From Thermoplasmata archaeon (GTDB lineage Archaea; Thermoplasmatota; Thermoplasmata; Lutacidiplasmatales; UBA184), in NCBI GenBank assembly GCA_021798195.1, contig JAJZYH010000004.1, positions 8,095-72,094 of the forward strand: a DNA stretch of 64,000 nucleotides, read 5' to 3'. Below, piece by piece: positions 36,498 to 51,507 of this stretch. The position numbers were made by a program, and so were the translations under genes. The notes below the pieces were generated by a model that ran no database searches, was not told the DNA's origin, and saw only the letters and a list, made by a program, of their open reading frames with translations. Position 1 is the first letter of the stretch; each line of letters opens with the position of its first letter.

Positions 36498-38414
36498 ATG
36501 GTGGTCGGCCTGACACTTTCCAGGCTAGGGAAACGATATGTAGGAACGATTGCCGCAATCGCCTGTGCGCTCATTCTAATCACCGCTGCCAGTCTTGCGC
36601 TTACCCGGACCGCCCCGCCTCCGGCTCCTCCTGCTATAAAGCCGGTCGCCGCATTCGGACCGAAACTCCTTGTCCATGAGCCCGGAGGTCGTAGCGCCCT
36701 TGCCAACAACACCACCATCAACATTCAGATCTTTTCGGCTGTCCCGAACGCGTTTCGTTCAACCGGCCTCCTCTTCTATCCGGTTTCACCACAGGACCAG
36801 TGGACCAATGGGGTAAACGAAGAACTCCTCAATGCCACACTCTTCCCGGGCAACAACACGACGGCCTTCTTCCTCGCTCCATCATTCAATACGATCGCTC
36901 AGGAGTGGACCGTTCTTCTCTCCCACGACCAGGGAAGGAATTTCCCGTCCCTAACCGTTGAGGCCGTGAAAACGGTGAACATGAGCGGCAACCTCTACCT
37001 CTACCAGTATTACAACAATCTCCCTTACAACCCGTTTGATCTCAAGGTAGTCAACCTGAACCAAACGGACCTTGCATTAGGAGGCGCCAGTTGGTTTGAT
37101 GGCACCGGGGTCAATGTTACTGACTACTCTCAAATTATCATGGCAAACCTTGAACTTAACCTGACGCTGGAATTCCCGAGCCACCCGATTCAGGTGGTGC
37201 CCGTACCCCCACCAAACTCCTTTAGAAGCGCCCACCAGATCCCCGCTGAACGTGGCCCGGCAGGCTGTGCTGTGCAAGGCGAGAGTTGTATCTACGAGTA
37301 TTACTATACCTATCCGAGCGTGACTACCAACACGCTGGTCAAGACCACGTTCGCCAACGGAACGTTACCATTGCTGGGTGTTCACATAGGACGGAACGCC
37401 GAAGGGGGCGGGTCAGTGATTGCCCTGAGCGCTGATGTCAATGTGTTGAATGATACCATCGAATTGAATTCTGTCCAACCGTATGAGAACGCTTCCGGAC
37501 AAATCACCACCACAATGAGCACATCCCCCTCGTTCGCGCACGAAGCCAACGTGAGCGTGGGCCAGGCGAATAACCAGTTTGATGCCATTCCCACCGGAAT
37601 TTCCAAGGACCTCGGGAACAACAACTCGGTCTCCTTGAATCGGACGACTGCCATTGTAGGAATCCAGGGCGTGGAGTACGAATTCCAGCACTACAAACGG
37701 GAGACCTACAACTACGTGGATTACTGGGAGAGAATGTGTTGCCCGCGTCCCAACGGTGACTGGGGTTGCTTTACCTATTTGCTTTCACAGACCGTTTCCA
37801 CAGTATATGATGGGCAATACACGGATGGCGAGATTGTCCATGTCAACTCCACGGCCGGCCTAGCCCTCCAGGCGGGGTTCATATCAATCTGGGCCGCCTG
37901 GGTCATTCAGCACACCTTGGCGAACGCAAGCAACGGAAGCGTGACGCTCACTACAAGCGGGACGGGCTCGAGCTACGAAGCCTCGACCATCTGGGCCGAC
38001 ACAAACGGTTATCTAGACGCCTCCAATGCATACAGTCAAGCTGCAAATCTGCTGGGGACCTTCTCCACCGCGCTGGGCCTGGGGCTGGCCATTGTCGATG
38101 CCTCCGCCGCGTTGAATGGAGCGGACTTTGATGCCACAGAGCCGACCGTGGTCGCAGATAGTCTCTCCCTCATTGCGGACACGATTGGAATGGCGGCGTC
38201 CGTATTGAACGCCTTCTCCTCCATCAGTGCGTACACAGGAACGCAGTCGATCACCCTTGGCTACGGATTCAGTAATGTCCCCGAAGCAGGATCAGGATCG
38301 CCATACACAATGGCCTTCTTCGAGAGTCAGAGCCCCGTGAGCTTGAGCGTGAACGGAAACACTTACTCGTTCTTCGCCCCCGAGGACTTTTTGAATGCGA
38401 CGGCGATTGCGTGA
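36498..38414 (+). CDS. secreted/anchored surface glycoprotein (S-layer-like), low-GC cargo gene of the composite element
   Basis: N-terminal hydrophobic anchor/signal (IAAIACALILITAASLALT) and more than 20 N-x-S/T sequons (NNTTIN, NATLFPGNNTT, NVTDYS, NLTLEF, NDTIELNS, NNNSVSLNRTT, NASNGSVTLTT...). The segment GC is visibly about 50% against about 68% for the flanks. An upstream AT-rich TATA-like box (ATTTAAAAG) sits about 30 nt before the ATG. Confidence 0.7.
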   Translation: MVVGLTLSRLGKRYVGTIAAIACALILITAASLALTRTAPPPAPPAIKPVAAFGPKLLVHEPGGRSALANNTTINIQIFSAVPNAFRSTGLLFYPVSPQDQWTNGVNEELLNATLFPGNNTTAFFLAPSFNTIAQEWTVLLSHDQGRNFPSLTVEAVKTVNMSGNLYLYQYYNNLPYNPFDLKVVNLNQTDLALGGASWFDGTGVNVTDYSQIIMANLELNLTLEFPSHPIQVVPVPPPNSFRSAHQIPAERGPAGCAVQGESCIYEYYYTYPSVTTNTLVKTTFANGTLPLLGVHIGRNAEGGGSVIALSADVNVLNDTIELNSVQPYENASGQITTTMSTSPSFAHEANVSVGQANNQFDAIPTGISKDLGNNNSVSLNRTTAIVGIQGVEYEFQHYKRETYNYVDYWERMCCPRPNGDWGCFTYLLSQTVSTVYDGQYTDGEIVHVNSTAGLALQAGFISIWAAWVIQHTLANASNGSVTLTTSGTGSSYEASTIWADTNGYLDASNAYSQAANLLGTFSTALGLGLAIVDASAALNGADFDATEPTVVADSLSLIADTIGMAASVLNAFSSISAYTGTQSITLGYGFSNVPEAGSGSPYTMAFFESQSPVSLSVNGNTYSFFAPEDFLNATAIA

Positions 38415-38561
38415 TATGAAGGGGAAGTGAGCCTTTAGCCCTGCGGCTACTTCCCCCGGGCCCATCTTCGACAAAGCGGCCGGTGCCTTCTCGGAGAACG
38501 TGAGTTGTAGGCACGCCTTGACAAGATTGTGGACACACTCACGTCCTGGATTCCGTGAGAC

Positions 38562-38880
38562 CTACACCACAGGCAGGTAGCGGGTAGCGCCGAGGGCGGT
38601 GAGGACCTCCTCCTGCTTGCCGGAGAGACGGGGCACCCCTTCCCGGATCGATTTCCCCGCGCTCGACCTCACCCACGGCACATTCTCGAGGAGCCGCAGT
38701 GCTTCGGAGAGGCTTTTCTCGGGGAGTTTCCGCTTCAGGGTCCGCTCCGTCCAGCTCCAGAGCAGCCAGGCCGTGTAGAGGACCGTCGCGCTCGCGTACA
38801 TCCGGTCCAACCGGTGCTTCCGGACCGGCTCGAGGTGGAGTTCCCCCTTGCCCGTTCGGAAGACCTTCTCGATCCCCTCG
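38562..38880 (-). pseudogene. C-terminal fragment of an IS4-family transposase gene (remnant)
   Basis: The translation ...RSPSPEGIEKVFRTGKGELHLEPVRKHRLDRMYASATVLYTAWLL matches the IS4-family C-terminal Y-x2-R-x3-E-x6-K signature region. It is truncated abruptly at the junction with the partial IS copy at 38880. Confidence 0.45.
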
Positions 38881-39218
38881 GGCGAGGGACGGGATGGCCG
38901 TGGCGGGCGAGTTGGGCGTAGAAGGCATGGAGGAGTTGGTCGTCGTGCAGGGCCAATACCTTCCGCTCGAGTGCGGTGCGTTTCTCCGAGGTGAGGATGT
39001 CGAGACGGCCAAGGTAGAGTTCGGTCCGGTTTCGCACGCGGGATCCGTCGCGAAAAGCTCTGGCGACAACCCAGTAATCATGGCCGCGGTTAGGGCAAAT
39101 CTCGAGGAACATGGTACCGGGACAAATGCTCTGGCGACATACCCTCCATTTCGGGTCACCACCGTCGAGATGGCAAGGACTGGCTGGTCCGGCGGCAACC
39201 CCTCGTTTGAAGCTATAG
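38880..39218 (-). repeat. partial (about 339 bp) direct copy of the IS right end, including IR-R and the transposase 5' coding region
   Basis: Near-identical to 36080-36417 (ggcgagggacgggatggccgtggcgggcgagttgggcgtagaaggcatgg...ctcgtttgaagctatag). Confidence 0.8.
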
Positions 39219-39226
39219 CGACGCAT
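39219..39226. repeat. target-site duplication, right copy (CGACGCAT)
   Basis: See 34086-34093. Confidence 0.7.
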
Positions 39227-39306
39227 CGGCATCCCCCCCGCAAACTCTTTTATAGCGTCCCCCGTGTGGAACGTGCTACTTCACTCGTGAAGTGGAGGCG
39301 TTCTAC

Positions 39307-39975
39307 ATGCAAAGTGCAATCTCCCTGCCTTCCGCCGTGACCCACCCGGACGAACTCCTCAAGGGAACCACCACGGTGGGCATGGTCTGCAAGGACGGGG
39401 TGGTCATGGCCACCGAGCGCCGGGCCACCGCGGGGACGTTCATCGCCAACAAATCCACCTTCAAGCTGTTCAAGATCGACAACCATCTGGGGATGACCAT
39501 CGCGGGGCTCGTGGGGGATGCCCAGACCCTGGTCCGGTACGCACGGGCGGAGGTCGCCCTGTACCGGCTCCGGCGCAACGCACCCATCAGCGTGGAGGGG
39601 GCCGCCTCGCTCCTCGCCAACATCCTCAACGGGAACCGCTACATGCCGTACTACGCCTGGCTCATCCTGGGCGGCGTGGACATGAAGGGAAGCCACGTCT
39701 ACTCCATCGACCCGGCGGGGGGCAGCATCGAGGACAAGTATGTGTCGGTGGGCAGCGGGTCCAGTTTCGCCTACGGCGTCCTCGAGGAGGCCTACGAGCC
39801 GGACCTCACGCTGAACGAAGGCGTGGACGTCGCCCTCCGGGCGCTCACCGTGGCCATGAAGCGGGATTCCGCGAGCGGCGACGGCTACCTCGTGGCCACC
39901 ATCTCCGAGAAGGAGTACAAGGATTTCACCGAAGAGGACATCAAGCGCCGCCTGAGCAAACTCAAGATCGCCTGA
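39307..39975 (+). CDS. psmB: proteasome subunit beta (Thr-protease precursor)
   Basis: Propeptide followed by TTTVGMVCKDGVVMATERRAT (Thr1 nucleophile). The TATA-like CTTTTATAG lies about 48 nt upstream. An alternative GTG start at 39292 exists. Confidence 0.85.
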   Translation: MQSAISLPSAVTHPDELLKGTTTVGMVCKDGVVMATERRATAGTFIANKSTFKLFKIDNHLGMTIAGLVGDAQTLVRYARAEVALYRLRRNAPISVEGAASLLANILNGNRYMPYYAWLILGGVDMKGSHVYSIDPAGGSIEDKYVSVGSGSSFAYGVLEEAYEPDLTLNEGVDVALRALTVAMKRDSASGDGYLVATISEKEYKDFTEEDIKRRLSKLKIA

Positions 39976-40049: not shown

Positions 40050-41954
40050 ATGAGCTTCGAAAGCCTGATGGAACAGACGCGGGAGGTCCTCAAGGAGGTC
40101 CTCCCCGAAGGGATCGAGGTCACGGACATCGAGCTGGAAGGCCCCCACGTGGTCATCTACACGAAGCAATTGGACGCGTTCCTCTCCGGCGGGGAGCTCC
40201 TGCGCCAGGTGGCCCAGCGGCTCCACCGGCGGGTCCTCGTCCGCTCCGACCCCGGGTCCCTCGTGGACCCCAAGCAGGCGGAGGCGGTGATCCGGGAGCT
40301 GGTCCCCGCCGGGGCGGAGATCTCCCACATCTATTTCGAGCCCGAGACGGGGGAGGTGAGCATCGAGGCGGCGAACCCCGGGGCGGCCATCGGGCGCCAG
40401 GCCTCGGTCCTCAACGAGATCAAACGGCAGATCGGCTGGGTCCCCACGGTGGTCCGGACCCCTCCCATCCCCTCGAAGACCGTGGAGGAGGTGCGGACCT
40501 ACATGCGCACCGTCTTCGATGAGAGGCGGAAGTTCCTGAAGAAGGTGGGGACCCGGATCGCCCGGGACCGCCTTCCGGACAAGATCTGGGCCCGGAGCAC
40601 CGCCCTCGGGGGGTACCGGGAGGTGGGGCGGAGCGCCCACCTCCTCACCACCCAGAACTCGAAGATCCTCATCGACTGCGGCATCGACCCCGGCTCCGAC
40701 CGGACCCCGTTCTTCAATGCCCCCGAGGCGATGCCCCTCGAGAACCTGGACGCCGTGGTGGTGACCCACGCGCACCTGGACCACTGCGGCCTGGTCCCCA
40801 CCCTCATCAAGTACGGCTACACGGGGCCCGTCTACTGCACCGCCCCCACGAGGGACCTCATGGCCCTCATGCTCCTCGACGCCATCAAGGTCTCCAACCA
40901 GGAGGCGCGGCGGGGGCTCTACGACTCGTCCCATGTCCGGGAGCTCGTCGCCCACACGGTCCCCCTGCGGTGGGGGGAGACCACGGACATCGCCCCCGAC
41001 GTGCGCCTCACCCTCCACAACGCAGGGCACATCCTGGGTTCCTCCATCTGTCACTTCCACCTGGGGGACGGGGATTACAACATGGCCTATTCCGGGGACA
41101 TCAAGTTCGAGCGCACGTGGCTGTTCAATCCGGCCACCAACCGGTTCCCCCGCCTGGAGACGCTGGTGATGGAGTCCACCTACGGGGGGTACCGGGACAC
41201 CCAGCTCAGCCGGACCGCGGCGGCCGAGGAGCTGGGCCATTTCGTGGAGAAGGTGCTCACCCGTCGGGGGCACGTCCTCGTCCCGGTCTTCGCCGTGGGG
41301 CGGAGCCAGGAGGTCATGCTGGTCCTGGAGGAGAAGATGCGGGAGGGGAAGATCCCCAAGGTCCCCATCTACCTGGACGGGATGATCTTCGAGGCGACCG
41401 CGATCCACACCGCCTACCCGGAGTACCTCAACAGCCAGCTCCGGACCCAGATCTTCCAGCAGGGCGACAACCCGTTCCTCTCGGACATATTCCAGCGGGT
41501 GGACTCCAACCAGAAGCGCATGGGGATCATCGACGACCGGAACCCGTCCATCGTCCTCGCCACCAGCGGCATGATGAGCGGCGGCCCGGTGATGGAGTAC
41601 TTCCGTGCGTGGGCGCCGGACGAGCTCAACGGGATGGCCTTCGCGGGATACCAGGCCGAGGGCACCTTCGGCCGGAGGCTCCAGCGGGGGCTCCACGAGG
41701 CCACGCTCATGGACCAGGGTCGGACGGTCACCGTGCCGGTGAAGATGGAGATCACCAACTGCGAGGGGTTCAGCGGGCACTCGGACCGGGTGCAGCTCAT
41801 GAACTACGTGGCCACCCTGGAGCCCCGCCCCCAGAGGGTCCTCCTTTGCCACGGCGAGGAGAGCAAGTCCCTGGACCTCGCGTCGAGCCTGCACAAGCGC
41901 TTCGGCCTGGAGACCCGGGCCCCCTACAACCTTGAAACCGTCCGGATGATCTAG
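40050..41954 (+). CDS. archaeal CPSF1 homologue (KH domains + metallo-beta-lactamase / beta-CASP ribonuclease; transcription termination factor FttA-like)
   Basis: Two N-terminal KH-like segments, the MBL motif HAHLDHCG, beta-CASP motifs, and a C-terminal ...GHSD... region. 634 aa. Confidence 0.85.
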   Translation: MSFESLMEQTREVLKEVLPEGIEVTDIELEGPHVVIYTKQLDAFLSGGELLRQVAQRLHRRVLVRSDPGSLVDPKQAEAVIRELVPAGAEISHIYFEPETGEVSIEAANPGAAIGRQASVLNEIKRQIGWVPTVVRTPPIPSKTVEEVRTYMRTVFDERRKFLKKVGTRIARDRLPDKIWARSTALGGYREVGRSAHLLTTQNSKILIDCGIDPGSDRTPFFNAPEAMPLENLDAVVVTHAHLDHCGLVPTLIKYGYTGPVYCTAPTRDLMALMLLDAIKVSNQEARRGLYDSSHVRELVAHTVPLRWGETTDIAPDVRLTLHNAGHILGSSICHFHLGDGDYNMAYSGDIKFERTWLFNPATNRFPRLETLVMESTYGGYRDTQLSRTAAAEELGHFVEKVLTRRGHVLVPVFAVGRSQEVMLVLEEKMREGKIPKVPIYLDGMIFEATAIHTAYPEYLNSQLRTQIFQQGDNPFLSDIFQRVDSNQKRMGIIDDRNPSIVLATSGMMSGGPVMEYFRAWAPDELNGMAFAGYQAEGTFGRRLQRGLHEATLMDQGRTVTVPVKMEITNCEGFSGHSDRVQLMNYVATLEPRPQRVLLCHGEESKSLDLASSLHKRFGLETRAPYNLETVRMI

Positions 41955-41965: not shown

Positions 41966-43510
41966 ATGGCGCTCCCCCGGACCTTGGTGGTGGGGTTCGA
42001 CGGGGGGACCTGGGACCTCCTGGATCCCTTGCTCTCTGCCGGCTGGCTCCCCAACCTCCGCCGGTTCCTCGCGGGGGCGCTCCGGGCCGGGTTGAGGTCC
42101 GTGGACCCCCCCGTCACGATCCCGGCGTGGTACAGCGCCATGACGGGGCTCTCGCCGGGGCAGATGGACATCTGGGGGTTCGCGAAGCCCACTCACACCC
42201 CAGGGGAGCTCCAGTTGGTCCGCACCTACCGGCCCCACGAGGCGATCTGGGACATCCTGGGACGCCGGGGCTGGCGCATCGGGGTGGTGAACTTCCCGGC
42301 GGTCCCCGCCCCGCCGGTCCATGGATACTTCGTGAGCGGCATGGTGGGGGGCACTCCCGAGGAGATGGTCTACCCCCCTGCGCTCCGGAGCGAGCTCGGC
42401 TCTCCCGTCAACCCCTGGCACCACGACCTATTCCGGACGAGGGGGGACGGGCTGCGGGCGGCCCTCGCCGAGGCCATGGAGTCGATGGCCCAGAAGGCCC
42501 GTTTCGTGGAGGGCCGGGAATCCTCCGATCCCTCCGATCTCCTCTTCGTCCTGTTCAGCGAGACCGATCGCATCCAGCACAATTTCCTCCACTCGCTCCG
42601 GCACCCTGCTCCGGAGGATCTCCGGGACGTGCGCGCTTTCTGGGGAACCCTGGATGACGCATTCGGGCGGGTCCTCGCCGCCTTCCACGGGAAAGGCTCC
42701 TCCCCGGGGTACACCTGGCTCCTCTCCGACCACGGGTTCGGACCCGCGGAAGGGTACGTGTTCACCAACCGGTACCTCATCCGGGAGGGGTACCTCGTGA
42801 AGGGCGCGTCCGCCCCCTTCCGGTGGCGCCCCTTCGTGTCGGACGTCGCGGCCCGCGTGGATGCGCTGATCCCCCTCGCCCCCTTCGTGCGCCCCAAAAG
42901 GGCGGGGGCCAGCCGGCCCCTCCCGGGGGGGTCCCTCCAGGACGGCGACGGGACGGACCAGACCTTCTCCTGGTACAGCCGATTTGTGGATTGGTCCCGG
43001 ACCCGGGCGGTGAGCTTCCCCGTCCCCGAGGCGATCTACGCGAACCACTACCGGGGGGAGATGACTCCGGAATCCCTCCGGTCCCTGCGGAAGGATCTCG
43101 CGCGGTCCTTCGCCCGATTTCCGGGAGGCGCCATCGAAGCGGTGGATCCCTCGCGCCTCTACGGGGTGGACCTGGGGCCCATGTCCCCGCTCCTCCTCCT
43201 GTCCTCCCACGGAGGGGCGTGGGAGGTGCGCGGGGACATGAACCATCTCTTCCCCCGGCTCCCCCGGCGCCCCAGCTATTTCGAGCGGGAGGGGACCCAC
43301 CGCCCCGTGGGCATCTTCGCGGTGGCGGGTCCGGGGATCCCACCGGGAACCCGATCCGAGCCCTTCCCACTCCTCGGGGTCTTCCCCCTCATCCTTTCCG
43401 CGCTGGGCGTGCGCCCCCCCGGAGCGGGAGGCGCGCCGGTCCCGGGAGATTGGGCGAAGCTCTTCCCGGTACAACCCTCGGGCCGCGGGGAAAGCCCGGG
43501 AGGCATGTGA
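41966..43510 (+). CDS. alkaline-phosphatase superfamily protein (type I phosphodiesterase / nucleotide pyrophosphatase family)
   Basis: N-terminal metal-ligand region LVVGFDGGTWDLL, VTIPAWYSAMTG, and later DHGF... resembling NPP/phosphoglycerol-transferase-like enzymes. Confidence 0.6.
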   Translation: MALPRTLVVGFDGGTWDLLDPLLSAGWLPNLRRFLAGALRAGLRSVDPPVTIPAWYSAMTGLSPGQMDIWGFAKPTHTPGELQLVRTYRPHEAIWDILGRRGWRIGVVNFPAVPAPPVHGYFVSGMVGGTPEEMVYPPALRSELGSPVNPWHHDLFRTRGDGLRAALAEAMESMAQKARFVEGRESSDPSDLLFVLFSETDRIQHNFLHSLRHPAPEDLRDVRAFWGTLDDAFGRVLAAFHGKGSSPGYTWLLSDHGFGPAEGYVFTNRYLIREGYLVKGASAPFRWRPFVSDVAARVDALIPLAPFVRPKRAGASRPLPGGSLQDGDGTDQTFSWYSRFVDWSRTRAVSFPVPEAIYANHYRGEMTPESLRSLRKDLARSFARFPGGAIEAVDPSRLYGVDLGPMSPLLLLSSHGGAWEVRGDMNHLFPRLPRRPSYFEREGTHRPVGIFAVAGPGIPPGTRSEPFPLLGVFPLILSALGVRPPGAGGAPVPGDWAKLFPVQPSGRGESPGGM

Positions 43511-43515
43511 GCCCC

Positions 43516-44739
43516 ATGGAGAGCCTCCGGTTCGCATTCATCTCCTCCCACCATCCCTCTGAAGGCGGTCAGGGGCTTGCCCACGTGGTCTCCTCGCTCT
43601 CGCAGGTCCTGGCGGGTCGGGGCCATCAGGTGACGGTCCTCTATCCGGTGTACACGCGGTCCAAGGATGCTCCGCGGGAAGAGCTCTGGAACGGGATCCG
43701 TTCCGTGCCCGTACCCTGGCACCGATTCGGGAGGCTCCCGTTCGGGAGGGACATCGAGTTCTCCTGGAATGCCGCACGGAGGCTGGATGGAGATCTCGAC
43801 ATCGTGGTGGTGAACAACGAGCACGGAGGACGCTTCGTGGTCCGCCGTTGCGAAACCCTCCGGAACGGCTCCAAGGCACGGCGGCCCGTGACCCTCATGG
43901 TCTTCCACGGGGTGGCACTCCGTTTCCTCGAGATGGGGCGCACCGATCGGCCGGACCGGCTCCGGGCGCGCCTGGGATATCGGGCCGACGCCGTCGCCTT
44001 GCGGTGGCTCGAGGGGGGCGCCGCCCGCCGCGCAGACGCCTGCGTGGCCTGCTCCCGCAAGGTGGCGCACGATGTGGCGACCCTCTACGGGGTCCCGGCA
44101 TCCCGGATCTCCGTGATCTACAACGGGGTGGACCCCACTCCGGAGCGGACACCTCCGGAGAAGAAGGAGGCCCGGGAGGAGTTGGGGATCCGCGACGAGG
44201 AGTTCTGCCTGTCCTTCCTGGCGAGGGACCCGCGGCGGAAGGGGTTCGATGTGGCCGTGGCCACCGTCCGGCTCCTGAGGGAGCGGGGGGTCCCGGCCAC
44301 GCTCCTCAACGTGGGGAACACGTGCCCGGGCTCGCCGGAGGTACGGAGCCTGGGCTCCCTCGACGCCCGAGGGAAGAGGCAGGCCCTCGCGGCCAGCGAC
44401 GTGTTCTTCCTTCCCACGTGGTACGAGGGCCTCCCGCTGGCGATCCAGGAGGCCGCCGCCATGGGGATCCCGGTGGTGACCACGCCGGAGGCGAACCTGG
44501 AGTGGGGCGTGGCGGGTCGGGATTACCTGGTGAACTCGCCCAACCGCCCCGAGGTCCATGCCGAGGCGCTCGCGTCCCTCTACCGGGAGCCGGAGCGGAG
44601 GGAGGCGATGGGCCTCAGGGGCCGGGAGACGCTGGGGGTACGCCCGTATTCTCTCCAGGCCCAGGAGTACGAGGAGTTGGGCCGGCGGATCCTGGGCGCT
44701 CCCCGGGGACGGGCCGCCGCCCTCTTCGGGTCCGGATGA
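43516..44739 (+). CDS. GT4-family glycosyltransferase
   Basis: GT-B C-terminal motif TWYEGLPLAIQEAAAMGIPVV (EX7E). The N-terminal domain FISSHHPSEGGQGLAHVVSSLSQVLAGRGHQVTV is typical of GT4. Confidence 0.75.
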   Translation: MESLRFAFISSHHPSEGGQGLAHVVSSLSQVLAGRGHQVTVLYPVYTRSKDAPREELWNGIRSVPVPWHRFGRLPFGRDIEFSWNAARRLDGDLDIVVVNNEHGGRFVVRRCETLRNGSKARRPVTLMVFHGVALRFLEMGRTDRPDRLRARLGYRADAVALRWLEGGAARRADACVACSRKVAHDVATLYGVPASRISVIYNGVDPTPERTPPEKKEAREELGIRDEEFCLSFLARDPRRKGFDVAVATVRLLRERGVPATLLNVGNTCPGSPEVRSLGSLDARGKRQALAASDVFFLPTWYEGLPLAIQEAAAMGIPVVTTPEANLEWGVAGRDYLVNSPNRPEVHAEALASLYREPERREAMGLRGRETLGVRPYSLQAQEYEELGRRILGAPRGRAAALFGSG

Positions 44740-47700
44740 TGAAAGCCACCAGAGCGGGCGCCACGAACCAGACCGCAAGGAGGAGGAGGGTGACGAGGCT
44801 CCCCAGGATCCCCTCCCCGAAGGCCCCCTGGACCCAGGGGAGCCCGATGGTGATGTTCTGACTCCCCGGCGGCACGACGAAGGCGGTGGCCCACCCGTCC
44901 ACCACGATCGAGGGAAGGAGGCCCACGGCGGTGTGCGCGGACCACCCCGCGGAGGCCGGGACACGGTCCACCAGGAGCCGGGGGCCGCCCTCCGGTGGGA
45001 GTTCCAGGGAGAGCGCCATGGAGCCGGGAGATCCGGAGGTCACGGTGCCGGTCTCGAGTTGCCCGGACGCAAGGAGCTCCCGGAGCTCGGAGAGGGGAGA
45101 GCCCGAGGTCGCCGGGACCAGGTCCACCAGATCCACGGTGACGTTCCCGGAGAGGACCCGGAGGGAGACCTCGTAGCTACCTATGCCGGAGGCCAAGGAG
45201 CCCACCGAGGAGTACCACTCTGGGGTCCCGGACCGGATCGCAGCGGTGACGTTGACGGGGCCCGGACACGGGGCCGCCGGGGTGGGATCCGAATATCCTC
45301 CCGGATCCGGGCAGAGGGAGATCCCCAGGGTCCCATTCCCCTGGGCCCGGACCGTGGCGCCCAGGGGACCCGGGCGCAGGACTTGGATCCGGGAGGAGGC
45401 GGAGCTCCCGGCCGGCCCACCTCCCCCCCAGCCCTGGCTCATCTCGGCGCCGGTCTCCCATTGGGACCACCCGCCCGATGAAGTGGCGAGGGAGCCCTTG
45501 ATCTGGTAGATCGCGGTGGGTCCTCCGCCGGGCACGGGGGCCAGCGCGGCGCTCAGGTCGGCCGCCGCGCGGTCGATCTGCGAGGGGGTGGCCCAAGCGA
45601 GGGTGGCCACGGTGCTCTCCCCCGGACCGGTGTGGAGGAGGGTCGCCACGGAGGCGGACCCCGTGAGGACCCCGAGGGGAACCCAGCGGAACCCGAGGGG
45701 GACGGGGCTCCACGCATCGACGGAGAACGTCTGGGAGCCCAGGGATACCTCAAGCTCTCCTTCCTGGGGCCCGAAGAAGACCTCGGCGAAGAGCGTCGCC
45801 CCGGGGGCGGTGGGGGAAGAGAGAGGGACCTGGAGGGGCGCTCCGCCAGTGGATCGGGCCCAGTCCTCCCAGGCCGCCAGGGGGATCCCTCCTTCGGTCT
45901 GGGGGGCCGCTTCCCAGGGGAGCCAGACACCCGGCGTCGTGGGGAGGAACGGGCTCGCTCCCAGGGAGTTCCAGGCGGCGGGGGCCACCGAAACGAGATC
46001 GCCGGGCGGGAGGGATTGGAAGAGCGCGTCGCTCCAACCCCCGGGAGTCTCCACGGTGAGGTTCCAGAGAGGCTGCGGAGGGAGGGGTCCTCCCGGGAGG
46101 AAGGCCACCGTGTCGTTCCGGAGGTAGCCCGGCCCTCCCGGAAGGTAGCCCGCCTCGAGGAGGAACTCCCGGTTGGCCAGGGCCACGGTGGCCCGGTCCG
46201 TGGCGGTGAGGATGCCCGGCGTGTCGTTGGTCCGGTAGAGTTCATCCCCGCCGGAGGCGAATCCCGGGGGGAGGTCCGCCTGGGCCGCCAGGGCCCGGGT
46301 AAGGTTCTCCGGGGAGTCCCATCGGTAGCGGATGTCGTGGGAGACCGACTGGTTGGGAGCCACCATCCACAGGCCGGTCCCCAGGAGCCCGAAGAGGCTG
46401 GGGGCGTGGGAAGTCTCGTTCTGGTAGAAGGATTCGTAGGTCCAGAGCACCGATCGCAGGGTCGGGCCCTCGGCTTCCACGCCGGTGGTGAGAGGGATGT
46501 AGAGTGCGTCGGCACTGGGGTAGACCACGAACGGGTCCGTGGTGGCCGGCTTCCCCGGTGCCGGAAAGTACGCCGGGTCAGGGGGGAAGAGGGCGATGCG
46601 CCCTCCGGGGGGCGCGAGCTCCGATGCGGTGGCGGCGAGCGGGGTGACCGGGGGCGCACGGATCATCTCCCCCCCGAGGCTTCCCGCCGCGAAGGGGAGG
46701 GCCCCCACCAACACGATGACGACGCAGGCGACCCCCCAGACCCGGGGAAGGGCGGGAGGGGACGACGGGAGGCGGGGGGACAGGGTCCTCCCCCGAAGAG
46801 GATTCCCCGGGGCACGGATCGTCCACCGGGGAAGTCCCTTCCCCAGGAGGAACGCAAGGGCGGGGAGGGCCACCACGTCGAACTTGTTGGGATCGTCGTT
46901 CACGGCGAACAGTGGCACGTGGGCCACCAGTTGCAGGTAGATGGGGCCCAGGGCGAGGGTGCCGGCGGACAGGAGGAGGAAGGGGAGCGAGAGGAGGCCG
47001 AAGAGGCGGCTCTGGGGATCCCCGCGAAGGAGGCCCCAGAGGAGGGCGCCTCCCAGCACCACCGAGAGGGCCCCGGCCGCGAGCGGACCGGCCGCCGGCG
47101 CCGCGAGGGCGGCCCAAGCCGAGTCGTAGGCGGGGGAGAAGTAGCCGTTCCCCGAGAGGAGGTTCCAGGGAGTGAGCTGTCCCTGGGTGAAGGCGAGGGT
47201 GTTGGCGATGGTGGCCACCTGGACCCCGGCCTGCCCCGTCCGTCGGGAGATCTCGGCGGCCGGCCACACCCAAACGAGGTTCAACCCCACGGCACCGGCG
47301 AGGATGATGAGGTCCCCCAGGAACCCATGCACCGTCGGGCGCCAGGGTCTCGGCGACCCTGCCTTGGACGAGCGGCGATGCCGGATCCAGATGAGTCCCG
47401 TGCGGAGGATCACGAAGGCGAGCCACGCGAGGGCGGCGAGGTAGAACAGGTGGTACTCCAGGAAGCCGACCCCTCCCAGGAGAACGAGGGCGAGGAGCGT
47501 GGCCTTCCGTTCTTCCGGGCCCAGGACCCGGGTCCCCATCACGGCGAGGAACGGGGGGAAGAGGAGGTAGGCCAGGAGGATGTTCTCGTGCCCGGCCACG
47601 AACCGGTTGAAGACCCACGGAGACAGGGCGAAGGCGAGCGACGCGATCCCTGCCGATCCGGTGGGGATCCCCAGATGCCGCGCCGAAAGGTAGAACGAGA

Positions 47701-48097
47701 GTCCCAGGCCCGCCTCCGTGAGGAGGAGGAGGGCCACGGCCCCCTCGCCGGCCGACCCCAGGGCGACCCCCAATCCCCCCAGGGCCGCGCCCAAGAGGAG
47801 ATCGTTGGTGAAGAAGGGCTCGAAGGTCCCCCCGGCCGGCTGGGGGTTCCAGGGGGTGGAGAACGCGAGGAGGTACGCGTGCCAGTTCCCGCCGCTGGGG
47901 GGGGTCACCACGTCGCCGCTGTAGAACGCGTCCCCCCACGGATGCAGGGCCGGCAGGAACGAGAGGAGGGCGAAGGAAGCCCAGACGATGAGACCGATCC
48001 CCAGGGCATGGCGCGGGACCCTGGCCCAACGCGCCAGCGACTTCGTTCCATCCCTCATGCGGCGGGAGACGGACGAACTGGGGGAAGGGTCGGTCAT
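44615..48097 (-). CDS. about 1160-aa polytopic membrane protein with a large extracytoplasmic domain and a C-terminal TM anchor: putative GT-C-type glycosyltransferase or surface-glycan assembly protein
   Basis: About 12 N-terminal transmembrane helices, then about 600 aa of extracytoplasmic sequence with N-x-S/T sequons, then a final TM (LLLLAVWFVAPALVAFII) and a basic tail. No WWDYG motif, so not a canonical AglB. Convergently overlaps the GT4 gene by about 125 nt. Confidence 0.55.
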   Translation of the reverse strand: MTDPSPSSSVSRRMRDGTKSLARWARVPRHALGIGLIVWASFALLSFLPALHPWGDAFYSGDVVTPPSGGNWHAYLLAFSTPWNPQPAGGTFEPFFTNDLLLGAALGGLGVALGSAGEGAVALLLLTEAGLGLSFYLSARHLGIPTGSAGIASLAFALSPWVFNRFVAGHENILLAYLLFPPFLAVMGTRVLGPEERKATLLALVLLGGVGFLEYHLFYLAALAWLAFVILRTGLIWIRHRRSSKAGSPRPWRPTVHGFLGDLIILAGAVGLNLVWVWPAAEISRRTGQAGVQVATIANTLAFTQGQLTPWNLLSGNGYFSPAYDSAWAALAAPAAGPLAAGALSVVLGGALLWGLLRGDPQSRLFGLLSLPFLLLSAGTLALGPIYLQLVAHVPLFAVNDDPNKFDVVALPALAFLLGKGLPRWTIRAPGNPLRGRTLSPRLPSSPPALPRVWGVACVVIVLVGALPFAAGSLGGEMIRAPPVTPLAATASELAPPGGRIALFPPDPAYFPAPGKPATTDPFVVYPSADALYIPLTTGVEAEGPTLRSVLWTYESFYQNETSHAPSLFGLLGTGLWMVAPNQSVSHDIRYRWDSPENLTRALAAQADLPPGFASGGDELYRTNDTPGILTATDRATVALANREFLLEAGYLPGGPGYLRNDTVAFLPGGPLPPQPLWNLTVETPGGWSDALFQSLPPGDLVSVAPAAWNSLGASPFLPTTPGVWLPWEAAPQTEGGIPLAAWEDWARSTGGAPLQVPLSSPTAPGATLFAEVFFGPQEGELEVSLGSQTFSVDAWSPVPLGFRWVPLGVLTGSASVATLLHTGPGESTVATLAWATPSQIDRAAADLSAALAPVPGGGPTAIYQIKGSLATSSGGWSQWETGAEMSQGWGGGGPAGSSASSRIQVLRPGPLGATVRAQGNGTLGISLCPDPGGYSDPTPAAPCPGPVNVTAAIRSGTPEWYSSVGSLASGIGSYEVSLRVLSGNVTVDLVDLVPATSGSPLSELRELLASGQLETGTVTSGSPGSMALSLELPPEGGPRLLVDRVPASAGWSAHTAVGLLPSIVVDGWATAFVVPPGSQNITIGLPWVQGAFGEGILGSLVTLLLLAVWFVAPALVAFIIRTRRGRRPVPGERPGSAGPTPRTPGPGENTGVPPASPGP

Positions 48098-48137
48098 GGG
48101 ACGGGTAGGGTCCCTCCCCATGGGAAGCATCCCCCCA

Positions 48138-48773
48138 TCATCCTTCTCCCTTGGGAGCGGAAGAGGGAGAGGCTTCCTGGAACTCCTCGAGCTTCCACGC
48201 CTTTCCGCTCAGGGCTCCCCGGCGCCGCGTGACGCCGTGCGGGAGATCCATGGGCCGCCACGCGATGGGGGGCGGGAGAACCCCGGACCTCCTGCCCGCG
48301 AGGAGTTCCTGGAGATGGGCCTTGAGGCCGGGGAACGGGTCCACCTCCCCCGGGCGTAGGAATGGCACGGACTCCCGGAGCACGTGGATCTGGGAGCCTT
48401 CCACGTACCAGATGCCCACCCGTTGGGCTCGGGCAGGTCCCGTGCGGCCCGCGGCCCGCTCCGCAAGGCTCCGGCGGGGGAGCACCACGGCGACCCAGTC
48501 CCCCCACCCCCGCCGAAGAAGGGCCTGCTCCCGGACGCGCCTCCAATCGGCGACCTTGAGCTCCACGAGCCCCACCTCCTCGCCCCGGACCGCCACCGCG
48601 TCGAAGTAATCGGTCCCGTCGGGGTCGAACCAGACCTCGTATCCCTGGTCCTCGAGGAAGCGGGAAACGGGCGCCCGCAGGTCCACCTCCTTCACGTGGA
48701 CACCTCGTAGACCGCCACGCGGTATCCCCACGGATCGCCCCGCCGCAGTCCGCAGGCGGGATTCACCTCCCAT
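48138..48773 (-). CDS. PD-(D/E)xK nuclease-fold protein, Hjc-like (Holliday-junction-resolvase-like core with a C-terminal extension)
   Basis: SRFLEDQGYEVWFDPDGTDYFDAVAVRGEEVGLVELKVADW aligns with the Hjc/NucS-type D...(E)xK catalytic arrangement. Start uncertain. Confidence 0.4.
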   Translation of the reverse strand: MGGESRLRTAAGRSVGIPRGGLRGVHVKEVDLRAPVSRFLEDQGYEVWFDPDGTDYFDAVAVRGEEVGLVELKVADWRRVREQALLRRGWGDWVAVVLPRRSLAERAAGRTGPARAQRVGIWYVEGSQIHVLRESVPFLRPGEVDPFPGLKAHLQELLAGRRSGVLPPPIAWRPMDLPHGVTRRRGALSGKAWKLEEFQEASPSSAPKGEG

Positions 48774-49627
48774 ACGTCGGGGTCATCCGGAAGGAAACCC
48801 TGGAACTCCGAGGTTCCCGGGAATCCCCGTCGCGCCGCCTGGCCGAGGATCTCCTCAAGGGGTCCCCAGAGCGGCTGGAGGGGGATGGCTTCCCGGACGC
48901 GGTCTTCGCCTCTTGGCCCCACGGGGTGGGGAGGAGGCGGGGGATCGGCGAGGAATCCCGTGCGGGTCCCCCGCCAGAACCGGCCCGCTCGGACCGCCTC
49001 CCGGAGCCGGCGCTCCGTCGCCTGGACGAGCCGGAAGCTCCCCGAGATGCTCCAGCAGAGGAGCCCCGCCTGTCTCCGGATCCACTCCAGGGAGGACGGA
49101 TCGAGCCGGGCGTCGTGGTCCATTGATGCCGCCTCGGGGATCTCCCTTGCACTCCCCAGGGCACGGGGATCCGGACGGGCCCGGTAGACACCGGCGACCC
49201 ACCGTGGGAGCCCGCCGGCCCGCTTCACCAGGGCGTGCGACGCCGCATTCCCCTCCTCCACGGTGAGGCGGACGGTGTGGATGCCCCGCTCCCGCGCCCG
49301 AGCGAGGGCGAACCGTGTGAGGAGGAGGCCCAGTCCCCGCCCCCGGTCCTCCGGGGCGATCCGGATGGCGTTGAGCCAGCCCTCCCCTTCCCCCAGATCC
49401 TCGAGGCGCAGGATGCCCAGGAGAGTCTCTCCCCGGAAGATCCCCAGGACCCAGGGTTGGGCCATCCACTCTTCCAGGTTCGGGAGAAGGTAGTCCGAGG
49501 GGACCGCCCGGGAGAGGAGGTCCCGGGCGGCCAGGAGATCCCCGGGCAGGGTGACCTCTCGGAGGATGAGGTTCCCCTCGGCCTTCCACTGCGTGGAGGT
49601 CTCCGGGGGGGACTTTGGGGCGGTCAC
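48692..49627 (-). CDS. GNAT-family acetyltransferase with a C-terminal extension, translationally coupled to mutL
   Basis: Acetyl-CoA motif DRGRGLGLLLTRFALARA. A candidate GTG start overlaps the mutL TGA stop (GTGA). An alternative ATG at 49465 would leave too short an N-terminus for a GNAT fold. Confidence 0.5.
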   Translation of the reverse strand: MTAPKSPPETSTQWKAEGNLILREVTLPGDLLAARDLLSRAVPSDYLLPNLEEWMAQPWVLGIFRGETLLGILRLEDLGEGEGWLNAIRIAPEDRGRGLGLLLTRFALARARERGIHTVRLTVEEGNAASHALVKRAGGLPRWVAGVYRARPDPRALGSAREIPEAASMDHDARLDPSSLEWIRRQAGLLCWSISGSFRLVQATERRLREAVRAGRFWRGTRTGFLADPPPPPHPVGPRGEDRVREAIPLQPLWGPLEEILGQAARRGFPGTSEFQGFLPDDPDVWEVNPACGLRRGDPWGYRVAVYEVST

Positions 49628-51444
49628 GGACGGTGGAACCACCGGTCGAGGCGTTCCCGGGGGATGGAGACCATGATGGGACGGCCATGGGGGCAGGTGA
49701 AGTTCTCCGGGGTACGGTAGAGCTCCCGGAGCAGGCGGTGGATCTCGTCGGGGGAAAGGACGTCCCCGGCACGGATGGCCATGTGGCAGGCCGTGGTCTT
49801 CCAGATCTCCTCCGGGGCACGTTCCACGGCCTCCCGGGGGAGGTCCGCCGCCAGGTCGTCGAGGAGCGCCGGGACCGATTCCGGCCGGAGCCGGTGGCCC
49901 AGGATGGAGGGGACGGCCCGGACGCGATAGGTCCTCTGGCCGAACGGGTCCACCTCGAAGCCCATCTCCCGGAGGCGTTCCCCATAGAGCTCCCAGGCCT
50001 GCGCCTGGCGTGGGGTGAGCTCCACCTCCCGGGCCTCCAGGAGCTCCTGGCGGGGGACCACGCTCTTCTCCCGGAGACGTTCGAAGACGATCCGTTCGCT
50101 GGCGGCATGCGCGTCGACCAGGACGAGGCTCCCGTCGGGCTGGAGCGACTCGGCCACGATGTAGAGGCGCCCCAGCTGCCCCAGGACGGAGATGGAGGGG
50201 TGCACAGGGCTTCCGGGGACCCAGGCTCCCGGTCCCTCCGGGCGGGCGTTCGCGCCTTCGGGCGGCGAGGGTCGGGAGACCTCCGGGAAGCCCGGAAGGA
50301 ACGCCTCCAGGGGGCGCAGGCGCCCCATGGAGCCCTCCACCTCGGCGGCCAGGAAGGAGTGGGGCGGATCCGGCTCCGCCACCGGTGCCGGGACGGAGAC
50401 CTCCGGGAGGGTCCTCGGCTGGTCCTGGAGCCGCGCCCGGAGGAGGGCCCGTACGTTCTCCCGCAGCTCCAGTTCGCGTTCGAACCGGACCTCCTGCTTC
50501 GTGGGATGCACGTTGACGTCCACCCGGGCCCGATCCGCTTCCAGGTGCAGGACCACGATGGGAAAGCGCCCCCGGGGAAGAAGTCCCTGGTACGCCTCGC
50601 GGATCCCCTGGAGAAGGGGACGGGACTGGATGATCCTCCCGTTCACGCTGAGATAGATCCCGTCGGGCGACCCTCGGGACACCGAAGGGTGGGAGGCCAT
50701 CCCTTCCACCCAGATCCCGGGCCCTCCGGAACCCTGGAGGTCGAAGCATGCGTGGGCGATCTGGGGTCCGAACGTCCGCGCCAGGGCTTCCCGGAGGGAG
50801 GGCACGGAGTCGTGGTGCATGCTCTCCCGGCCATCCACCACGAGGTGGAAGCTCACCTCGGGCCGGGCCAGGTAGAACCGTTCCGCCAGGTGGGAGATGC
50901 GCAGGGTCTCGCTGGCGGGGCTCCGCAGGAACTTCTTCCGCGCCGGGGTGGAATGGAAGAGGTCCCGCACCTCCACGGTGGTCCCCGGGGATCGGGCGGC
51001 GGATTGAAGGGGGCTTGCGGCCCCTCCCCCCACCTCCATCCGAGCGGCGGAGTCCCGGCCGCGGATCCGGGAGGTGATCCGGAGGCGGGCCACCGCGGCG
51101 ATGGCTGCGAGCGCCTCCCCCCGGAACCCCAGGGTGGAGATCGCGTCGAGACCCCGGGGACCTGAAAGCTTGCTCGTGGCGTACCGCTGCACCGCAAGGG
51201 GAAGGTCCTCCGGGACGATGCCATCCCCGTTGTCGGAGACCTCCACCAGGTCGAGGCCCCCCTTTTCGATCCGGATCCCGATCTCGGTGGCCCCCGCATC
51301 CAGGGCGTTCTCCACGAGTTCCTTCACCACCGACGCCGGGCGCTCCACCACCTCCCCGGCGGCGATGAGTCGGATCGTCTCCTCCGGAAGGGCCCGGATG
51401 CGGGGAGCCTCCGTGCCTCGCTCCCCGGGGTCCGGACGGTCCAT
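49624..51444 (-). CDS. mutL: DNA mismatch repair protein MutL
   Basis: GHKL ATPase N-terminus IRALPEETIRLIAAGEVVERPASVVKELVENALDAGAT and a C-terminal dimerisation/endonuclease region. Confidence 0.9.
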   Translation of the reverse strand: MDRPDPGERGTEAPRIRALPEETIRLIAAGEVVERPASVVKELVENALDAGATEIGIRIEKGGLDLVEVSDNGDGIVPEDLPLAVQRYATSKLSGPRGLDAISTLGFRGEALAAIAAVARLRITSRIRGRDSAARMEVGGGAASPLQSAARSPGTTVEVRDLFHSTPARKKFLRSPASETLRISHLAERFYLARPEVSFHLVVDGRESMHHDSVPSLREALARTFGPQIAHACFDLQGSGGPGIWVEGMASHPSVSRGSPDGIYLSVNGRIIQSRPLLQGIREAYQGLLPRGRFPIVVLHLEADRARVDVNVHPTKQEVRFERELELRENVRALLRARLQDQPRTLPEVSVPAPVAEPDPPHSFLAAEVEGSMGRLRPLEAFLPGFPEVSRPSPPEGANARPEGPGAWVPGSPVHPSISVLGQLGRLYIVAESLQPDGSLVLVDAHAASERIVFERLREKSVVPRQELLEAREVELTPRQAQAWELYGERLREMGFEVDPFGQRTYRVRAVPSILGHRLRPESVPALLDDLAADLPREAVERAPEEIWKTTACHMAIRAGDVLSPDEIHRLLRELYRTPENFTCPHGRPIMVSIPRERLDRWFHRP

Positions 51445-51507
51445 CGGGCCGCTGAGGTCCCCCGGGTCCTTGAGCGTTTCCGATAGCGAAGCCCTCTCCG
51501 ACCCCCC

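Follow-up and report, generated by a model that had tools for sequence, protein, structure and literature searches.

We analysed a 64,000-nt stretch of Thermoplasmata-type archaeal DNA (hereafter the window; 69% GC) and focused on three consecutive genes, two on the plus strand and a large one on the minus strand, which lie where the earlier note had placed them. In all three ORFs GC3 far exceeds GC2, the signature of a real gene at 69% GC. The features of the locus are:

40050–41954, plus strand: FttA/aCPSF1 (PF17214, PF10996, PF07521), upstream neighbour of the NPP–GT4 pair
41966–43510, plus strand: NPP-type alkaline-phosphatase-superfamily enzyme, predicted soluble, COG3379-like ('AlkP superfamily phosphohydrolase/phosphomutase'), 514 aa
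43516–44739, plus strand: GT4 glycosyltransferase (GT-B fold, retaining-type), 407 aa
44615–44739, both strands: convergent overlap of the GT4 and GT-C genes, 125 nt
44615–48130, minus strand: AftD-like GT-C glycosyltransferase gene, stop codon included, 1171 aa
44723–44839, minus strand: C-terminal TM helix and start of the Arg-rich stop-transfer (residues 1098–1136, modelled helix)
44840–46684, minus strand: extracytoplasmic domain (residues 483–1097, from AF2 secondary structure)
46685–48016, minus strand: N-terminal polytopic GT-C membrane module (residues 39–482, ~12 TM helices)
46883–46897, minus strand: D412, D413 and K416 of the NDDPxKFD motif, from conservation
47912–47914, minus strand: D73 of FYxGD in the first outside loop, from conservation
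48138–48695, minus strand: p185, a conserved protein of unknown family (185 aa), after a 7-nt gap upstream of the GT-C gene

The first gene follows FttA at a spacing of 11 nt, and its product matches PF01663 (91 bits; cut-off 23). All 45 homologues share the bimetal-site residues (D12, D201, H205, D255, H256 and H445), the Thr motif PPxTxPAW is likewise conserved among them, and the AF2 model (pLDDT 89.5) finds ENPP1, ENPP3 and the Xac (Xanthomonas) NPP as its best Foldseek matches (E ~1e-14). No TM segment or signal peptide was found in the product, which on sequence and modelled fold is a predicted soluble cytoplasmic NPP-type phosphodiesterase or pyrophosphatase. The alkaline-phosphatase superfamily named in the earlier note thus stands, but the likeness to phosphoglycerol or phosphoethanolamine transferases does not: such transferases belong to PF00884 and carry a membrane domain at the N-terminus, and the LtaS/EptA/MdoB (PF00884) type was ruled out by the PF01663 match, the solubility without TM segment and the ENPP-like fold.

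The second gene lies in a frame that is open from 42823 to 44739 and likely starts at the ATG at 43516. Its reading as a GT4 is borne out by matches to PF13439 (91.8 bits), PF13692 (57.6 bits) and PF00534 (53 bits), and an E-x7-E motif lies at residues 304–312. The conserved core stops near residue 395 (nt 44700), and the remaining tail is dispensable, since a SNP in an independent assembly (L002) ends the gene 9 codons sooner (398 aa). Orthologues with 47–53% identity occupy the same position in L010, L012, L016 and L017.

Conserved synteny pairs the NPP-type gene with the GT4 gene and not with the GT-C gene. The block FttA–NPP–GT4 is kept in five relatives from which the large gene is absent, with FttA at 80–87% identity and in unchanged gene order, so the three genes are not the single module that had been proposed. 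Between GT4 and the p185–GNAT–MutL–MutS genes lies a slot of variable content, which the large gene fills here; the large gene is probably co-transcribed with those genes, p185 included. In L017 a GtrA-family gene fills the slot downstream of GT4. The p185 protein had no match in Pfam or PADLOC, and its orthologues (46–61% identity) adjoin MutL/GNAT genes in L010, L012, L013 and L017. Outside the window, a GT4 adjoins members of the GT-C family in every context examined (L001, L003, L004, L006, L007, L008, L009, L014 and L015), a pairing that recurs in unrelated contigs, and some members additionally lie near GT2, GT9, heptose-pathway, epimerase and FkbM methyltransferase genes or a second PIG-U-like GT-C. 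Because the GT4 of the window is orthologous to GT4s of relatives without the GT-C gene, we infer its coupling to the GT-C gene from the family-wide adjacency only. The window contains no dolichyl-phosphate-sugar synthase (GT2), flippase or AglB gene, and with no further glycan genes in the rest of it the label 'surface-glycan locus' was overstated.

Counted from the first ATG, the large protein has 1171 aa, slightly more than the ~1160 aa first given; its homologues begin near residue 25, and the true start may therefore be the ATG at 48058. Hydropathy and the AF2 model place a K/R-rich N-terminus in the cytoplasm and both the D73 loop and a ~615-residue domain (residues 483–1097) outside the membrane. 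Together with the K/R distribution and the AF2 helices, hydropathy also indicates ~12 TM helices in residues 39–482; residues 1098–1136 form one C-terminal TM helix, after which come an Arg-rich stop-transfer and a Pro/Gly tail that is disordered. This agrees with the ~12 helices, ~600-aa extracytoplasmic domain and C-terminal TM described earlier, and the C-terminal TM is kept in P0002, P0003, P0005 and P0007. In the model, the ectodomain comprises the alpha/beta soluble part of a GT-C followed by three beta-sandwich, CBM-like modules; the family profile matches CBM6, CBM35 and related modules in the PDB, and Foldseek aligns the ectodomain with the CBM6 entries 2cdp and 2cdo (TMt 0.74–0.76). 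The sequon richness noted before also proved strong, with 10 of 12 ectodomain Asn residues in N-x-S/T (shuffle mean 1.9; 0 of 5000 shuffles reach 10) against 0 of 12 in the TM part, an enrichment that fits surface exposure.

The large protein itself has no match in Pfam or NCBIfam even at E ≤ 10, and a profile of its close clade alone did not reach AftD in the PDB, so its link to AftD is transitive or structural. The window-clade profile reaches P0020 (E 1.8e-14), which NCBI names an arabinofuranosyltransferase-domain protein and which scores above the gathering score of PF11847, GT-C_AftD (44 bits vs 26). This Pfam family is matched by 11 of 40 family members (best 1e-11), and hhalign of the window clade with the PF11847-matching group (P0016, P0017 and P0020) gives a probability of 100% and an E of 4e-54 over 1008 columns. 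The 40-sequence family profile matches the M. abscessus AftD structures 6w98 and 6wbx (E 2e-21) in two stretches, one in the N-terminal GT-C module and one in the C-terminal sandwich plus TM, where the TM region aligns with AftD 1142–1285. A Foldseek search with the AF2 model (pLDDT 81.5, pTM 0.83) returned AftD first, over the full length (E 1.5e-27), with AglB, PglB, AftA, EmbA/B and STT3 all far behind; the GT-C fold is thus recovered, and no other structure comes nearly as close as AftD. Against AftD the global TM-score reaches just 0.43–0.49, which is unsurprising in a multi-domain protein whose domains are arranged differently. From profiles and model, the large protein is predicted to be a GT-C enzyme of AftD-like architecture and a distant archaeal relative of AftD.

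The membrane module also carries a candidate active site. D73, H181, D412, D413 and K416 are invariant among homologues of 24–36% identity, and D73, in FYxGD, is invariant in the close clade and at least 90% conserved in the 40 family members. D73 lies in the first outside loop, as does D41 in AftD, and K416 aligns by HMM with AftD K361, which is essential.

We consider it probable that the large protein acts outside the cytoplasm as a GT-C glycosyltransferase with the build of mycobacterial AftD. Its ~12-helix module bears the candidate active-site loop, its large outside domain ends in the CBM-like beta-sandwiches, and the single C-terminal helix re-anchors the chain in the membrane. Going by GT-C enzymology, D73 and D412–D413/K416 would form the donor and acceptor site. 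The sugar would come from a polyprenyl phosphate carrier (dolichyl phosphate in archaea) at the outer face of the membrane and would be added to a surface glycan under construction, which the beta-sandwich modules would hold. Either a lipoglycan or a protein-linked glycan might serve as this acceptor in the Thermoplasmata cell, which probably has no wall. Before flipping, the precursor, lipid-linked or anchored in the membrane, would most likely be made from nucleotide sugars by the cytoplasmic GT4, and the GT4s flanking family members elsewhere most likely do the same.

A function related to YfhO, PTPS-related or DUF6541 proteins would make the large protein the third part of a GtrA/GtrB-like system, giving an existing polymer single-sugar decorations and not AftD-like chain branching. 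Five of 40 family members match PF10131 (PTPS_related), two DUF6541 and one YfhO, a GtrA-family gene occupies the equivalent slot in L017, and an archaeal precedent exists in Haloferax volcanii AglS, a Dol-P-mannose-dependent extracytoplasmic mannosyltransferase that adds a single sugar outside the cell. We nevertheless regard this function as unlikely: the matches are weak (best 1.3e-5) and fewer than those to PF11847, no GtrA or GtrB partner lies in the window, and the full-length architecture with C-terminal sandwich and TM fits AftD. It differs from an AftD-like enzyme in acceptor chemistry and not in mechanism, making it a nuance more than an alternative.

The protein might otherwise be a non-catalytic surface or scaffold pseudo-GT-C whose CBM-like modules only bind envelope glycans. 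AftD E251 aligns near A309/N310 and D474/E475 with T531/D532, of which D532 is N or S in clade relatives; conserved acids are thus missing at sites reported essential in AftD, and the sequon-rich ectodomain resembles a structural surface glycoprotein. The invariance of the five membrane-module residues at such low identity, the family-wide conservation of D73 and the persistent adjacency to cytoplasmic GTs speak against a scaffold, and conservation of loop motifs between TM helices points to an active site, so that we hold a non-catalytic role to be improbable. We give still less credence to an AglB/STT3-type oligosaccharyltransferase paralogue that would move a whole lipid-linked oligosaccharide in one step onto Asn residues of surface proteins. 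The GT-C fold, the large outside domain, sequons evidently used by the organism and the presence of AglB (3waj, 6e-5), PglB and STT3 in the Foldseek list (E 6e-5 to 3e-3) would fit it, but these matches are ~20 orders of magnitude weaker than AftD, which is the only GT-C found with a sequence profile; no WWD, and hence no WWDxG, motif (the earlier note had already recorded the lack of WWDYG) and no STT3 Pfam match at E ≤ 10 was found, and the CBM-like sandwiches with terminal TM helix are AftD-like and unlike AglB.

The gene that encodes the predicted AftD-like enzyme is a single real and intact one, as full-length homologues and a second assembly attest. The Logan assembly L002 (12,237 nt) covers 42514–54750 at 99.9% identity without indels, reproducing the overlap with GT4, and homologues of 1116–1170 aa from five Thermoplasmata genomes and a high-GC metagenome contig (L001) align from TM1 through the C-terminal TM, those at 34–36% identity end to end. 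An assembly artefact (a fusion of two genes or a frameshift, with a mis-assembled junction behind the overlap) might be suspected from the length of that overlap, the frequency of spurious long ORFs at high GC and a homologue in L007 that is broken into two frames, but it is refuted as far as two assemblies allow, and has a negligible probability given the gap-free second assembly, the five full-length homologues that agree in length and architecture, the one coherent multi-domain fold of the model and a GC3 of 0.87 over the entire ORF.

The tail-to-tail overlap of 125 nt, although real and shared by L002, is not unusually long as had been thought, because stop density predicts about 41 codons: the antisense frame used by the large gene has 0.0246 stops per codon over 27 genes of the window, so that stops lie 40.6 codons (122 nt) apart on average, and the observed read-through is 41. 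It is a chance product of high-GC composition. The Pro/Gly tail of the GT-C protein (residues 1140–1171, nt 44618–44713) lies antisense to the last conserved GT4 helix and the unconserved GT4 tail (nt 44701–44739) antisense to the TM-helix end and RRGRR of the GT-C gene; the Pro/Gly tail has a pLDDT below 50, is missing in P0002 and varies in length in P0003 and P0005. The overlap would be a passive by-product, the ORF continuing through GC-rich GT4 antisense to the first chance stop.

Compared with known NPP/ENPP enzymes (PF01663), the first gene product shares the alkaline-phosphatase-superfamily core, bimetal ligands and Thr nucleophile motif, but it is predicted to be cytoplasmic, has ~240 additional C-terminal residues and is only 13–17% identical to solved NPPs. 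The large protein has in common with AglB, PglB and STT3 a GT-C membrane core, an acidic residue for catalysis in the first loop on the outside and a predicted lipid-phosphate-linked donor at the outer face, and differs from them in its soluble-domain architecture. AglS and YfhO, PTPS-related and DUF6541 proteins modify envelope glycans outside the cell with polyprenyl-phosphate monosaccharides; they too are polytopic and GT-C-type but mostly shorter, without the AftD-like C-terminal sandwich and TM, and the large protein itself matches none of these families directly.

The closest known system is AftD, the Mycobacterium alpha-(1->3)-arabinofuranosyltransferase (PDB 6w98, 6wbx and 6wby; PF11847, formerly DUF3367), a cell-wall enzyme that depends on a lipid-linked sugar and acts at the membrane's outer face. 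To our knowledge its donor, decaprenyl-phosphate-arabinose, is not expected in archaea, and the archaeal protein must therefore use another sugar and another acceptor. Where AftD ends in five TM helices, the large protein has one, and it thus probably lacks the cytoplasmic face with which AftD binds ACP. Identity is only 15–16%, there is no direct PF11847 match, and the archaeal protein has 1171 aa against ~1400 aa in AftD, with corynebacterial AftD at ~1070 aa; the one host is an archaeon and the other mycobacterial, AftD homologues having been reported only within Actinobacteria (Tan et al.). Both proteins nonetheless show, in the same order, a GT-C membrane module, a long outside domain with CBM-type beta-sandwiches and a C-terminal membrane anchor, with profile-level sequence homology at both ends.

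The three genes that the earlier note had singled out as a surface-glycan module were recovered at exactly the coordinates it had given, each with the GC3-rich signature of real genes. They lie beside archaeal housekeeping genes, in the following order:

39292-39975: proteasome beta, archaeal housekeeping gene
40050-41954: FttA/aCPSF1, archaeal housekeeping gene
41966-43510, plus strand: NPP-type enzyme, 514 aa
43516-44739, plus strand: GT4 glycosyltransferase
44615-48130, minus strand: large membrane protein, AftD-like GT-C
48138-48695, minus strand: p185, 185 aa

Further archaeal housekeeping genes in the window are MutL, MutS, succinate dehydrogenase, PAN, Cdc48, TFIIB and AlaRS, and its GC content is 65-72% almost throughout. 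Using the close-clade alignment to scan genomes for relatives of the large protein, we found that the closest genomes were all Thermoplasmata, one of them Candidatus Lutacidiplasma silvani, for whose order a GC content of about 69% is given (PMC9287336). Beyond the NPP, GT4 and GT-C genes, the window holds no GT2, flippase, AglB or other glycan gene, and no Dol-P-sugar synthase gene was detected within it.

The large ORF spans 1171 aa counted from its first ATG; because its homologues begin near residue 25, translation may in fact start at the ATG at 48058. The topology is the same by hydropathy, by charge distribution and in the AlphaFold model: about 12 TM helices, as proposed earlier, span residues 39-482, the N-terminus is cytoplasmic and K/R-rich, and the first extracytoplasmic loop (58-107) is devoid of K/R. 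The large ectodomain (about 615 residues) and the single C-terminal TM helix (1098-1136) were likewise confirmed; beyond this helix lie RRGRR and a Pro/Gly tail that is disordered. The sequon richness of the ectodomain is also real: 10 of its 12 Asn lie in N-x-S/T, compared with a shuffle mean of 1.9 and none of 5000 shuffles reaching 10. None of the 12 Asn of the membrane part lies in a sequon, and the enrichment is lower in homologues.

Window positions 42514-54750 are matched at 99.9% identity, without a gap, by an independent Logan assembly (L002) built from another run. A word-indexed search returned only this near-identical copy and one relative at 36% identity, and the alignment to that relative, as to further ones from an exhaustive search, runs from TM1 to the C-terminal TM helix. 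Homologues in five Thermoplasmata genomes are 1116-1170 aa long and 34-36% identical. The gapless L002 match and the end-to-end homologues together rule out a fusion or frameshift artefact. In one of the five genomes, a Microflora Danica Thermoplasmata MAG (L007), the homologue at 7884-11128 is split into two frames (tblastn segments 8001-9395 and 9431-11128, one ORF stopping at 9770), either a pseudogene or a sequencing frameshift.

The family identity of the large protein emerged only from distant comparisons. Pfam and NCBIfam scans returned no match even at E <= 10, as did a Pfam scan of its homologue P0002, and the protein does not itself reach the gathering score of PF11847 (GT-C_AftD). 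An exhaustive HMMER search gave 100 representatives, mostly 1000-1250 aa; PF11847 was matched by 11 of 40 representatives, and a few of the 40 matched PTPS_related, DUF6541, YfhO or CBM models. One homologue, P0020, bridges the window clade and the PF11847 members, as it matches the window-clade profile at E 1.8e-14, exceeds the PF11847 gathering score (44 bits vs 26) and is named an arabinofuranosyltransferase-domain protein at NCBI. Aligning the window-clade profile with the PF11847-matching group in hhalign gave a probability of 100% (E 4e-54, 1008 columns). Against PDB sequences, a 3-sequence profile found nothing and a 6-sequence close-clade profile gave two chance-level matches (E 1.8 and 2.3) and no AftD. 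Among the profiles tried, only that built from 40 sequences reached AftD, matching the M. abscessus cryo-EM structures 6w98 and 6wbx at E 2e-21 over two stretches: the GT-C membrane module and the first part of the soluble domain (profile 56-585, AftD 52-568), and the last sandwich with the TM helix (profile 913-1054, AftD 1142-1285).

The AlphaFold model (pLDDT 81.5, pTM 0.83) gave the same answer in Foldseek: the top match, at E 1.5e-27 along its full length, was AftD, and other GT-C enzymes scored between 6e-5 and 3e-3 (AglB 6e-5, PglB 6e-4, AftA 1.2e-3, EmbA/B 1.9e-3, and STT3). An AglB paralogue was rejected on the lack of WWDxG, the lack of an STT3 Pfam match and these far weaker scores; the sequence contains no WWD, in line with the earlier remark that the AglB WWDYG motif is missing. 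The large protein belongs with the AftD-like GT-C enzymes, as a divergent archaeal representative. Since the ORF is no fusion and a GT-C fold is recovered, this part of the earlier note stands, with AftD now the nearest relative.

We then compared it with the residues found essential in the AftD structure paper (K39, D41, E251, K361 and D474), applying to the HMM alignment the offset of +3 between PDB sequence numbering and the paper. K361 aligns with K416, within an invariant NDDPxKFD motif of the large protein. E251 aligns near A309/N310. D474/E475 falls on T531/D532, two positions without conservation in the clade, where relatives have N or S in place of D532. D41 lies upstream of the aligned stretch; judging from sequence, its counterpart is probably D73 (FYxGD) in the first outside loop, which is invariant in the close clade, conserved in at least 90% of 40 family members, and aligned with D38, a residue that is invariant among the PF11847-matching proteins. 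With K361 matched in this sequence alignment but E251 and D474 apparently not conserved, the active site is predicted to be only partly AftD-like.

Five relatives without the large gene share the order Sdh, proteasome, FttA, NPP, GT4, followed on the opposite strand by p185, in some cases GNAT, MutL and MutS. Their identity to the window genes is 80-87% for FttA, 38-54% for the NPP-type enzyme and 34-53% for GT4. In none of these conserved-order loci is the large gene present, and the slot after GT4 is occupied as follows:

L012 and L013: nothing extra
L010: nothing extra; GT4 fused to GT2 (738 aa, 9596-11812)
L017: GtrA-family gene (11770-12120) and CLC channel
L016: unclassified 426-aa polytopic membrane protein (11748-13028), overlapping GT4 by 29 nt
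Window: AftD-like gene, starting 7 nt beyond the p185 stop

Because the order is kept in relatives that lack the large gene, the unit under conservation is the NPP-GT4 pair, with the GT-C gene as a lineage-specific occupant. What had been described as one three-gene module is instead a conserved pair with a variable insert.

The first gene had been read as phosphoglycerol/phosphoethanolamine-transferase-like, which we could not support: it has no PF00884 match, neither a TM segment nor a signal peptide could be called with confidence (maximum 19-residue hydropathy 1.51, near residue 464, within the folded domain), and its fold matches are NPPs. It matches PF01663 at 91 bits (cut-off 23) and has invariant bimetal ligands (D12, D201, H205, D255, H256 and H445) and a PPxTxPAW Thr motif; its model (pLDDT 89.5) gave ENPP1, ENPP3 and the Xanthomonas (Xac) NPP as best Foldseek matches, at about 1e-14. 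Family, topology and fold rule out an extracytoplasmic enzyme of the LtaS/EptA/MdoB type, with PF00884 and an N-terminal multi-TM region. The product is predicted to be a cytoplasmic NPP-type phosphodiesterase or pyrophosphatase, and we speculate that its conserved pairing with GT4 could reflect a synthase/phosphohydrolase couple whose target is a phosphorylated intermediate or nucleotide sugars.

The assignment of the second gene to GT4 is well supported (PF13439 91.8 bits, PF00534 53.4, PF13692 57.6, and an E304-x7-E312 motif). Its frame is open from 42823, with the ATG at 43516, 5 nt past the stop of the first gene, as a plausible start. GT4 genes consistently adjoin members of the GT-C family in the loci examined:

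Lutacidiplasma-type loci (in full L001 and L006): GT4, GT-C, second PIG-U-like GT-C, GT4
L008: two GT4 genes beside the family member
L009: GT4, GT9, GT2, heptose pathway
L014: GT4 genes, FkbM methyltransferases
L015: GT2 and GT4 genes, epimerase

The GT4 of the window shows no orthology to the GT4s flanking other family members (E > 1e-5, otherwise only weak matches); the association is one between families and not an orthologous pair. The second polytopic protein of the Lutacidiplasma-type loci (about 890 aa; L001 5697-8384, L006 7032-9707) has PIG-U/PIG-M-like (GT-C) similarity. Its gene is convergent to the AftD-like gene and is followed by GT4, two unknown proteins and a BNR-repeat protein.

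The tail-to-tail overlap of the GT4 and GT-C genes is real, as the earlier note had it, but is not unusually long. Orthologues place the end of the GT4 core near residue 395 (nt 44700), and the core of the GT-C protein extends to RRGRR (nt 44714). The overlap consists of the unconserved tails of both genes. The GT-C tail (1140-1171) has pLDDT below 50, is missing in P0002 and varies in length in other homologues, and in L002 a SNP stops GT4 nine codons sooner (398 aa vs 407 aa). Over 27 window genes, stops in the antisense frame that the GT-C gene reads number 0.0246 per codon, or one every 40.6 codons on average; the observed read-through into GT4 antisense is 41 codons. The convergent genes at this junction are packed tightly in the relatives too, overlapping by 4-29 nt or lying 22-68 nt apart. 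Given the composition of the window, chance accounts for the overlap, and no special explanation is called for when convergent genes overlap by about 120 nt in genomes of 70% GC. Near 44712, a difference in L002 both brings the earlier GT4 stop and replaces R1134, in the large protein's stop-transfer, with G; close by, VPGE in the window reads IPVA in L002.

Elsewhere in the window, GC falls from about 70% to 56-62% at 36-40 kb, in a region containing or adjoining three ORFs:

34102-35700, minus strand: 532-aa ORF, weak Mutator-transposase similarity only (E 0.013)
36093-38414, plus strand: 773-aa ORF, no significant Pfam match (best E 0.16), no PADLOC match
38539-39243, minus strand: 234-aa ORF, no match

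The 34102-39243 region looks like a foreign insertion. In the relatives, the Sdh-proteasome interval holds a second GT4 in L010 and L012 and no gene in L016 and L017. A PADLOC defence-system scan of the low-GC neighbours and p185 found nothing. p185 has no family match and lies beside MutL/GNAT genes in four relatives at 46-61% identity; by eye, its …DAVAV…VELKV… resembles a PD-(D/E)xK nuclease motif, and its place in an apparent MutS-MutL-GNAT operon makes a DNA-repair role conceivable. The SdhA ORF as listed (31394-33517, minus strand) has about 150 residues before the FAD-binding domain, and as orthologues are about 555 aa long its start is probably too early. A GvpD-like/KaiC-like ATPase gene lies at 21189-22733 (plus strand), with no gas-vesicle genes within the window.

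Taking as established the architecture, topology and AftD homology of the large protein, its conserved loop residues and the genomic association with GT4 genes, we propose that GT4 would prime on the cytoplasmic face, and that the GT-C enzyme would use a dolichyl-phosphate-sugar donor at an active site facing outside and built by D73 and the D412-D413/K416 motif, while its CBM-like modules would hold a surface glycan acceptor. Thermoplasmata cells have no rigid wall, and Thermoplasma at least has an abundant mannose-rich lipoglycan. The AftD-like GT-C enzymes, with their PimA/PimB-like GT4 flanks, could be the missing enzymes that polymerize or branch archaeal lipoglycan on the extracytoplasmic side, and the slot downstream of the FttA-NPP-GT4 block could be a hot-spot for lineage-level surface-glycan diversification; taken jointly, we consider these two proposals improbable. 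A literature search on AftD-like proteins/DUF3367 in archaea and on Thermoplasma lipoglycan glycosyltransferases found nothing relevant. Envelope glycan biosynthesis in the wall-less, acid-soil Thermoplasmata is essentially uncharted, and the GT4 and GT-C pair offers a sensible entry point. About 100 cluster representatives (about 1000-1250 aa) that are largely invisible to Pfam and mostly labelled 'hypothetical' (of ten names looked up, six were 'hypothetical' and two entries unnamed) gain a testable AftD-architecture GT-C assignment, a matter of better annotation and not of new principle.

The large protein shares with AftD an N-terminal GT-C TM region, a long outside region with CBMs and a C-terminal TM region, but the last comprises one helix here and five in AftD. 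CBM matches also came from the search with the 40-sequence profile. ACP binding and arabinofuranosyl transfer from decaprenyl-phosphate-arabinose are both unlikely in an archaeon, and the protein lacks the TM bundle that AftD has C-terminally on its ACP-binding side. The AftD structure paper found homologues only within Actinobacteria, and our results widen the range of this architecture to Thermoplasmata archaea. If the lipoglycan reading were true, archaea would have their own counterpart to the mycobacterial LM/LAM pathway, with cytoplasmic GT4 priming followed by flipping and by CBM-guided GT-C elongation.
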